Part shown: one piece after another, positions 3,424 through 4,817 of the stretch
How positions within the stretch are numbered: the first letter of the stretch is position 1
Layout: each line of letters starts with the position of its first letter
IMG/VR virus record: IMGVR_UViG_2534682108_000003
Coordinates: 1-33,127 of that record
DNA length: 33,127 nt
Origin: a virus
Taxonomy: Duplodnaviria; Heunggongvirae; Uroviricota; Caudoviricetes
Strand: one strand, 5' to 3'
Notes under the pieces: generated by a model
Databases searched by the model: none
Told to the model about the DNA's origin: nothing
Seen by the model: only the letters and a program-made list of their open reading frames with translations
Program-made: the position numbers and the translations under genes

Positions 3424-3498
3424 GTCCCCTTAGTTAAATGGATATAACGAGCCCCTCCTAAGGGCTAATTGCAGGTTCGATTCCTGCAGGGGACACCA
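3424..3498 (+). tRNA. argW: tRNA-Arg (anticodon CCT), argW-type
   Basis: 75 nt ending in CCA; 7-bp acceptor stem GTCCCCT/AGGGGAC; anticodon loop CTCCTAA; T-arm GCAGG-TTCGATT-CCTGC; cloverleaf folds by hand. Confidence 0.85.
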
Positions 3499-3659
3499 TT
3501 TATCAGTTCGCTCCCATCCGTACCAGTCCGCAAAATCCACTGAATATCAAGCCTTCCGTAGATTCACAGTTCGTAATGGTTCGCGCCAGATCGTTGACAG
3601 CCGCACACCATGACGGGTAAAAAGTGGATAAAATAATTTTACCCACCGGATTTTTACCC

Positions 3660-4817
3660 ATGCTCACCGTTAAGCAGATTGAAGCAGCAAAGCCGAAAGA
3701 AAAACCATACCGCCTTCTCGATGGTAATGGCCTGTACCTTTATGTCCCTGTATCCGGGAAAAAGGTATGGCAGCTTCGCTACAAGATTGACGGTAAGGAA
3801 AAAATACTAACCGTAGGAAAATATCCGCTTATGACTTTGCAGGAGGCAAGGGATAAAGCATGGACTGCGAGGAAAGACATCTCGGTTGGCATCGATCCGG
3901 TAAAAGCGAAAAAGGCTTCGTCTAACAACAATTCCTTTAGCGCCATTTATAAGGAATGGTACGAGCACAAGAAGCAAGTCTGGTCTGTAGGGTATGCGAC
4001 TGAACTTGCCAAAATGTTTGACGACGACATTTTACCTATCATCGGCGGTCTTGAGATTCAGGATATTGAGCCGATGCAACTGCTGGAAGTAATCCGCAGA
4101 TTTGAAGATCGCGGTGCAATGGAGCGAGCCAACAAAGCCCGCAGAAGATGCGGCGAGGTTTTCCGTTACGCTATTGTCACCGGAAGGGCTAAATATAACC
4201 CAGCACCTGACCTTGCTGACGCCATGAAGGGATACCGCAAGAAGAACTTCCCGTTTCTTCCTGCAGACCAGATCCCGGCATTCAATAAAGCACTGGCAAC
4301 ATTTTCAGGAAGTATCGTATCGCTCATTGCCACCAAGGTTTTACGCTATACAGCCCTAAGAACGAAAGAGCTTCGTTCCATGCAATGGAAGAACGTCGAT
4401 TTTGAAAACAGGATTATCACCATCGACGCCAGTGTGATGAAGGGACGCAAAATTCATGTGGTCCCGATGTCAGACCAAGTGGTTGAACTTCTCACTACGC
4501 TAAGCTCTATCACCAAACCAGTATCAGAGTTTGTTTTTGCCGGGCGCAACGATAAGAAAAAGCCAATCTGCGAGAACGCGGTGCTACTTGTGATCAAACA
4601 AATCGGCTATGAAGGTCTGGAAAGCGGTCACGGATTCAGGCATGAATTCAGCACGATTATGAACGAGCACGAATGGCCCGCCGACGCCATTGAAGTGCAA
4701 CTGGCACATGCTAACGGCGGTTCTGTGCGCGGGATTTACAACCATGCTCAGTATCTCGATAAGCGCAGAGAAATGATGCAGTGGTGGGCGGACTGGCTTG
4801 ATGAAAAGGTGGAGTAA
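3660..4817 (+). CDS. intS: P4-family tyrosine integrase (IntS-like) of the prophage, adjacent to the tRNA 3' end
   Basis: 385-aa product from ATG 3660 (MLTVKQIEAAKPKEKPYRLLDGNGLYLYV...), N-terminal arm-binding domain, C-terminal catalytic region with HGFRHEF and final Tyr region (IYNHAQYLDKRREMMQWWADWLD); the sequence matches what I recall of E. coli K-12 IntS; the track start at 3624 is a GTG extension. Confidence 0.85.
   Translation: MLTVKQIEAAKPKEKPYRLLDGNGLYLYVPVSGKKVWQLRYKIDGKEKILTVGKYPLMTLQEARDKAWTARKDISVGIDPVKAKKASSNNNSFSAIYKEWYEHKKQVWSVGYATELAKMFDDDILPIIGGLEIQDIEPMQLLEVIRRFEDRGAMERANKARRRCGEVFRYAIVTGRAKYNPAPDLADAMKGYRKKNFPFLPADQIPAFNKALATFSGSIVSLIATKVLRYTALRTKELRSMQWKNVDFENRIITIDASVMKGRKIHVVPMSDQVVELLTTLSSITKPVSEFVFAGRNDKKKPICENAVLLVIKQIGYEGLESGHGFRHEFSTIMNEHEWPADAIEVQLAHANGGSVRGIYNHAQYLDKRREMMQWWADWLDEKVE

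Follow-up and report, generated by a model that had tools for sequence, protein, structure and literature searches.

The recombination module formed by integrase IntS and excisionase TorI is common to phages and prophages residing at the tRNA gene argW (PMC2951348). In E. coli K-12, this site is occupied by prophage KplE1 (CPS-53), for which a 16-nt core, CTGCAGGGGACACCAT, has been published, along with the IntS arm-type sites, TorI sites and the intS promoter located in its attL arm (PMC2951348). KplE1 is 10.2 kb long; the genes gtrABS (yfdGHI) follow intS, and no virion, lysis or Q genes are present. Phages HK620, Sf6, CUS-3 and Kapi1 are podoviruses with P22-type short-tailed virions that integrate at argW, and argW is also a well-known site for Stx2a phages (PMC4645166). 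Here, we describe the argW locus contained in a 33,127-nt stretch of DNA (IMG/VR virus record IMGVR_UViG_2534682108_000003, positions 1 to 33,127), hereafter the window. Positions 3484 to ~33052 very probably belong to a temperate, contractile-tailed phage of the lambda-like kind that has integrated at the argW 3′ end, and represent its attL, integrase-proximal part. The underlying recombination system is one already understood, and this prophage is one more mosaic member of the group. The present analysis places the left boundary exactly at position 3484 and assigns the prophage to the experimentally characterised IntS/TorI module; beyond annotation, this is of little consequence.

The gene of tRNA-Arg(CCT), argW, occupies positions 3424-3498 on the plus strand and was recognised by ARAGORN and Rfam (65.6 bits). 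A first-pass annotation, made from the sequence of the window and its open reading frames (ORFs), had called this tRNA gene intact. It is complete, but it is chimeric, with a phage-derived 5′ end described below. The core CTGCAGGGGACACCAT is found at 3484-3499 on the plus strand, in a single copy in the window, and comprises the final 15 nt of argW and one further base. It agrees with the attP core of HK620, which is annotated between hkaC (the TorI homologue) and int. The K-12 annotation likewise lets CPS-53 begin 15 nt before the end of argW and labels a 15-nt copy at the far end of the prophage as “pawZ”. In a three-way alignment, the window, the K-12 attL and the HK620 attP are collinear rightward from the core through the arm into intS. 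To the left of 3484 the alignment breaks, with the tRNA body in the window and in K-12, and the P arm in HK620; the latter corresponds to the sequence that precedes, on the left, the attR core of K-12 and of the argW prophage of E. coli A41. Since homology to the HK620 attP begins exactly at the core, the left prophage boundary is set at 3484, inside the bracket of about 3480-3500 proposed previously. The window was searched for a repeat of the argW 3′ segment with a 29-mer (up to three mismatches) and a 15-mer (up to two mismatches), and the only match was the tRNA gene itself. Hence, the window does not contain attR.

The core is followed by the P′ arm of attL (3500-3659, plus strand), which includes the intS promoter region and was delimited by alignment to K-12, A41 and HK620. 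The whole spacer between argW and the intS start codon (3499-3659, 161 nt) is identical to the K-12 attL at 154 of 161 positions, and over its last ~60 nt it does not vary among K-12, A41 and HK620. A promoter-like consensus match, which is a pattern match only, is located at 3610-3637. By analogy with KplE1, the arm is assumed to carry the same, putative IntS and TorI sites.

The gene intS (3660-4817, plus strand) encodes an intact P4-family tyrosine integrase of 385 amino acids, as judged from Pfam and from alignments to the K-12 and P4 proteins. The ATG is at 3660 and the stop codon ends at 4817; the frame listed at 3624-4817 is only the longest one started by GTG. Both argW and intS are on the plus strand, so the earlier description of a co-directional integrase gene 160 nt after the tRNA holds to within one nucleotide. 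Matches to the domains Arm-DNA-bind_3 (PF13356, 89 bits), Phage_int_M (PF22022, 97 bits) and Phage_integrase (PF00589, 136 bits) are all far above the Pfam cut-off. The resemblance to K-12 IntS stated in the first-pass annotation proved to be near-identity, with 384 of 385 residues shared (99.7%). The two genes differ at 48 nucleotide positions, 47 of which fall in synonymous codons; therefore, intS is under purifying selection and is not decaying. The proposed membership in the P4 family is supported by 35% identity to P4 Int over the full length (402 columns, E 5e-78) and by catalytic motifs in register: LRTKE (Arg), HGFR, LAHA (His) and GIYNH (Tyr) of IntS align with VRSSE, HGFR, LSHS and AAYIH of P4 Int. 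The NCBIfam P4-like model PRK09692 gave 237 bits, under its 434-bit cut-off. Of 5426 complete E. coli genomes, 1847 carry the argW-intS segment with a coverage of ≥80%, and the gene is annotated there as “prophage integrase IntS”.

The recombination module of the phage is of the KplE1/HK620/Sf6 type. IntS is expected to exchange strands within the 16-nt core, and because this core is identical in the phage attP and the argW 3′ end, the tRNA gene would be regenerated at attL. In modules of this type, attP is located between the excisionase gene (torI/hkaC) and int. As the attP core of HK620 is situated between hkaC and int, integration should leave int at the tRNA end and the gene for the recombination directionality factor (RDF) at the other end. 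In the integrated state, intS occupies the attL end, with a putative promoter of its own inside attL, and is read inward toward the tail fibre genes, and torI and a second core copy would be found at the far attR end beside dsdC. Binding of IntS and TorI to the arms, autoregulation of intS and TorI-dependent excision can be presumed from the relatives and from the work on KplE1.

The argW T-arm recurs as an exact 16-nt copy, TTGCAGGTTCGATTCC, just upstream of torI/hkaC in K-12, A41 and HK620 (positions 11776-11791, 48465-48480 and 1677-1692 of the extracted stretches, respectively). This copy is ~290 bp from the att core. Joined, the two pieces give the final 31 nt of argW; the excisionase gene separates them. 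In HK620, the T-arm copy is within the annotated cII-activated promoter.

Phages HK620, Sf6, CUS-3 and Kapi1, among others, have int regions ~95% identical to intS at the nucleotide level. The attP core and the P′ arm of these four phages are identical to those in the window, attP is likewise placed between the RDF gene and int, and int converges on the tail genes. The window encodes a contractile tail with sheath, tube, tape measure and baseplate, unlike these phages. At the DNA level, isolated coliphages in the phage collection cover at most 12% of the region, namely, int and genes of the ant/immI region only. By the tail sheath, the only protein compared in this way, the closest isolated phages are Edno5 and GF-2 (73-75% amino acid identity over the full length), whose host genus is Edwardsiella and not E. 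coli.

The genes assigned in the region 4902-32610 are all on the minus strand, with the exception of the Arc-like repressor gene. Functions were assigned by PHROG and Pfam searches. The gene of the tail fibre assembly protein (4902-5360) and that of the tail fibre protein (5345-6415), a pair matching PHROGs 188 and 1396, converge on intS. Their K-12 homologues, yfdK and the yfdL pseudogene, have the same relative position. The baseplate module (6418-11322; PHROGs 587, 6, 120, 196, 349 and 1830) includes a DUF2612 protein, baseplate J/wedge, hub and plug proteins and others, and is collinear with A41 at 97.7% identity. The block 15432-19804 (PHROGs 2013, 1932, 1964 and 205) encodes the tape measure/lytic transglycosylase protein (15432-17249), then the tail chaperone, the tail tube and the tail sheath (18314-19804). 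Neck/terminator proteins, a cement protein and a MuF-like head morphogenesis protein are encoded within 19801-25726, together with the major capsid protein (22020-23060) and the head protease/scaffold (23547-24773). The portal (25647-27182), large terminase (27182-28708) and small terminase (28656-29246) genes follow (PHROGs 146, 38 and 51).

The region 29548-31632 contains a Rha-like regulator gene, ahead of the lysis cassette in coordinate order, and the cassette itself, consisting of the Rz spanin (30415-30852), endolysin (30849-31325) and holin (31309-31632) genes. Between the holin gene and Q lies a phage-borne pair of genes for tRNA-Thr(TGT) and tRNA-Asn(GTT) (31875-32030, ARAGORN and Rfam), which is also present in the A41 prophage. 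The late-gene antiterminator Q (32122-32610; PHROG 943, E 5e-90) is a protein common to thousands of mosaic lambdoid prophages. Thus, the late genes follow in one direction in the order Q, holin-endolysin-spanin, terminase, head and tail, with a nin gene upstream of Q. The same late order is found in A41 and in the prophage of T28R, with cro/cI/cII further on. The first-pass annotation had reported a full structural, lysis and packaging gene set up to the window edge. This set is present, but the last ~75 nt belong to an IS3-family insertion sequence (IS) element. The contrast drawn there with the short K-12 remnant stands, since a virion, packaging and lysis module here faces a 10.2-kb remnant in K-12.

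Integrases of the P4 family are frequent on satellites and islands, and an element recognised by its integrase might accordingly be a P4-like satellite or a non-phage genomic island. The genes for capsid, portal, terminase, sheath, tube, baseplate, fibre, lysis and Q proteins directly downstream of intS contradict such an origin, which is extremely improbable and was rejected.

Within the tail operon, between the baseplate and tape measure genes, there is a P22 immI-like block (11383-14848). It comprises genes for antirepressor 1 (11383-12192), antirepressor 2 (12192-13106), the Arc-like repressor (13442-13762, plus strand) and a P63C-domain protein (13778-14848). The alleles of this block vary among otherwise near-identical prophages. 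Two ORFs, 14896-15429 (plus strand, 177 amino acids) and 8649-9434 (minus strand, 261 amino acids), matched neither PHROG nor Pfam entries. The former is situated between the P63C and tape measure genes, is conserved in A41 and KCJ3K291 and may be a moron.

Collinearity of the window with the argW prophage of E. coli A41 extends from argW as far as the phage tRNAs, in blocks with 95.5-97.7% identity. It is interrupted by allelic replacements at 5057-6014 (tail fibre), 12740-14846 (an accessory region) and 29483-30422 (Rha region). The segment 12740-14846 has no counterpart in A41 and matches KCJ3K291. The A41 prophage, which was read whole from argW to torI and attR, is ~46 kb long. Its further part contains nin, replication, cII, cro, LexA-family repressor, recT and ea-type genes followed by torI, and it ends with the core copy CTGCAGGGGACACCA 74 nt downstream of torI; this 15-nt core at attR was found by direct string comparison of the att regions. 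About 40 late, virion and lysis ORFs of the window have the lengths annotated in A41. Prophages of E423 and EC16, like A41, have the same IntS end and a myovirus-type late region ~97% identical over 83-84%. In T28R, the prophage between argW and dsdC shows the same layout, a related virion module and two core copies. The tail fibre, 12740-14846, Rha and Q/nin regions of A41, E423, EC16 and T28R are alleles different from those in the window, and none of the four has the IS3-family insertion or the left-hand prophage in the combination found here.

Core copies number two each in K-12, A41 and T28R, where they flank the element, one in HK620 and one in the argW locus of E. coli O157:H16, which is free of IntS. 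TorI is 100% identical among K-12, A41 and T28R. By analogy with the syntenic prophages of A41, T28R and K-12, torI and attR are expected past the edge of the window.

A comparison with the K-12 argW locus had been recommended in the first-pass annotation. It revealed the same site, 16-nt core, attL arm and IntS in both, with intS oriented away from argW and homologues of the tail fibre assembly (66% amino acid identity) and fibre (40%) proteins beside it. Late genes are lacking in K-12. Conversely, the window contains no gtr genes and has ~28 kb of intact late genes. Judging from these sequences, KplE1 may have arisen by deletion from a phage of this general type that carried fibre genes.

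The closest relative of the late module of the window belongs to KCJ3K291 (3013036-3056000), with 97.5% identity at 94% coverage. There, the module is located at the dacD/sbcB locus, with no IntS and no integrase at the tail fibre end. This case is ordinary lambdoid mosaicism. Given that lambdoid modules are mosaic and that the same virion module occurs at dacD/sbcB with another integration module, intS and attL might be an orphan remnant, and the genes from tail to Q a separate neighbouring prophage in a tandem or composite array. However, neither a second att core nor another integrase gene is found between 3499 and 33052. From the intS-tfa junction onward, the window is collinear with a single prophage having one attL and one attR in A41, and T28R has the same architecture. 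Moreover, K-12 retains remnants of tfa and fibre genes beside intS, and in HK620, int converges on the tailspike gene. An orphan intS remnant is therefore very unlikely and was rejected owing to the A41 collinearity and the single core and integrase.

The assignment of 3484 to ~33052 to one contractile-tailed temperate phage has several points to contend with. The attR site and the torI, repressor and replication genes are absent from the window, and a single complete element is inferred. The exact mosaic was not found among the 5426 complete E. coli genomes, in which the best match to attL-intS-tfa was 96.5% identical. The virion and IntS modules are exchanged independently, since the late module of KCJ3K291 is located elsewhere without IntS. 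Finally, an IS3-family element breaks the nin region at 33052, which may be a simple insertion or the mark of a deletion or rearrangement.

This element (33052-33127) was recognised by 100% identity to the ends of annotated IS3-family transposase loci. The same end was found 100% identical in 450 genomes, with many copies on plasmids. Seven identical copies were observed in the O157:H16 strain that shares the left-hand prophage of the window. At the right edge of the window, the IS end interrupts a gene for a lambda NinI-like Ser/Thr phosphatase (32601-33054, minus strand), which, compared with an intact 223-residue homologue, is 5′-truncated and lacks ~78 N-terminal residues. A look-up of the truncated protein yielded only metagenome contigs of 1-2 kb, whose own ends are at the same point. 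The NinI phosphatase is dispensable in phage lambda. The interrupted gene is probably non-essential.

The opposite edge probably lies within an IS as well, the terminal part of an IS66-family (ISCro1-like) element at 1-79, which is outside the IntS prophage and was recognised by alignment. Positions 1-22 align to the 5′ end of an IS66 tnpA coding sequence in the E. coli O157:H16 relative. Relatives without this IS match only from position 80, plasmid matches are numerous, and the IS66-family boundary is probably at 79. With IS elements at both edges, the window is probably a whole short-read draft contig broken at repeats.

As a tentative proposal, the window may contain one half, that of attL, of a myovirus-type lambdoid phage of E. 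coli that is intact and inducible and combines IntS/TorI with a GF-2/Edno5-like virion. Such a phage would be an undeleted form of the KplE1/CPS-53 lineage, and argW would have been rebuilt by two phages. It is also possible, though doubtful, that the prophage is defective, a larger remnant of the CPS-53 kind in which attL, IntS and the late genes are intact and the IS3 insertion accompanies the loss or rearrangement of early genes, immunity genes or attR. Such a fate is suggested by the IS3-family end that truncates a phage gene at 33052-33055 in a window that also starts in an IS, by the decay mutation already present in the integrase gene of the neighbouring prophage and by the survival of the IntS module in remnants in K-12. 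On the other side, the ~40 late, virion and lysis ORFs are as long as in the complete A41 prophage, and intS is under purifying selection. The insertion hit a homologue of the NinI phosphatase gene, which lambda can dispense with, and IS ends at both edges correspond to the break pattern of short-read contigs and do not require a deletion.

The first-pass annotation had also noted two different integrase-bearing elements around one tRNA. Both are real, and the left one is a separate prophage at the 5′ end of argW. Its tyrosine integrase gene (2060-3249, minus strand) is an apparent pseudogene, as seen from Pfam and an intact relative. Arm-DNA-bind_3 was recognised on ORF 2896-3249 and Phage_integrase on ORF 2060-2926. 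An insertion of CA at 2919-2920 causes a frameshift and leads to a stop after ~120 codons. The intact protein, 389 amino acids long, is encoded in E. coli O157:H16 strain Res13-Lact-PEA12-26. The insertion may represent a true pseudogene or a sequencing error. The similarity of the left integrase to IntS is limited to ~30% identity in the N-terminal domain only.

Positions 1-3499 of the window are 99.8% identical to the O157:H16 strain. A 5-nt insertion relative to that strain, TTTTC, was observed in the left prophage at 558-562 in a TTTTC-repeat context; the rest of the 3.5-kb flank matches. In the O157:H16 strain, a ~43-kb prophage is located between yfdC and argW, and dsdC comes directly after the tRNA gene, with no IntS element. 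This prophage of the left type has a P27-type terminase, an HK97-type head and a Mu-like baseplate, and no stx. Its first junction consists of the native promoter, GTCCTCTTAGTTAAATGGATATA and phage DNA; the second one, on the integrase side, consists of phage DNA, GTCCCCTTAGTTAAATGGATATA and the remaining tRNA. These junctions indicate that the left phage recombines in tRNA positions 1-23, replacing the 5′ end of argW together with the upstream region. In the window, the corresponding att repeat at the integrase-proximal junction is 3424-3446 (plus strand), and no further copy of the argW 5′ segment was found in the window besides the tRNA gene itself. The repeat covers the acceptor stem and D arm of the tRNA gene. 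The possibility that the upstream integrase belongs to a tandem array at the argW 3′ end was rejected, as the O157:H16 junctions show a repeat of the 5′ end.

The arrangement of a minus-strand int, argW and intS was found in 152 of the 5426 complete E. coli genomes. Many of these doubly occupied genomes have a size and source typical of O157:H7-type Shiga toxin-producing E. coli. Double occupancy of argW is already known: in the record of Stx2a phage VT2phi_272 (GenBank HQ424691), attL is annotated on the 5′ 25 nt of argW, and IntS is seen across the tRNA. VT2phi_272 and Oslovirus PA2 resemble the left element in an integrase gene ~72% identical at the nucleotide level and divergent beside the argW 5′ end, and in an att site on the first ~25 nt of the tRNA. 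They differ from it in the backbone, as known from the O157:H16 relative, which also has no stx. In addition, the left element supplies C, not T, at tRNA position 5, and its integrase gene is frameshifted in the window.

Consequently, argW in the window is a three-part chimera of left phage, chromosome and right phage. Its 5′ end stems from the left phage and its middle from the chromosome, and the final 15 nt are common to the tRNA gene and the IntS prophage. Position 5 of the tRNA is C, the left-phage type, whereas K-12 and A41 have T. Thus, argW may have been rebuilt at both ends by two phages, with the upstream DNA, possibly including the promoter, supplied by a phage. A promoter scan at the tool threshold detected no consensus argW promoter in the phage-derived upstream DNA, and for this reason a phage-supplied promoter is inferred.

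The IntS/TorI module travels with contractile-tail virions too, beyond the P22-like phages of the earlier study, and argW can hold two integrase systems with different core sites simultaneously, one per end. For strain typing and prophage prediction, argW should be treated as two attachment sites, and mobility is not to be read from the presence of an integrase alone, as the frameshifted left integrase gene of this locus shows. If argW has indeed been rebuilt by two phages, expression of the rare-codon tRNA-Arg(CCU) could depend on prophage DNA.

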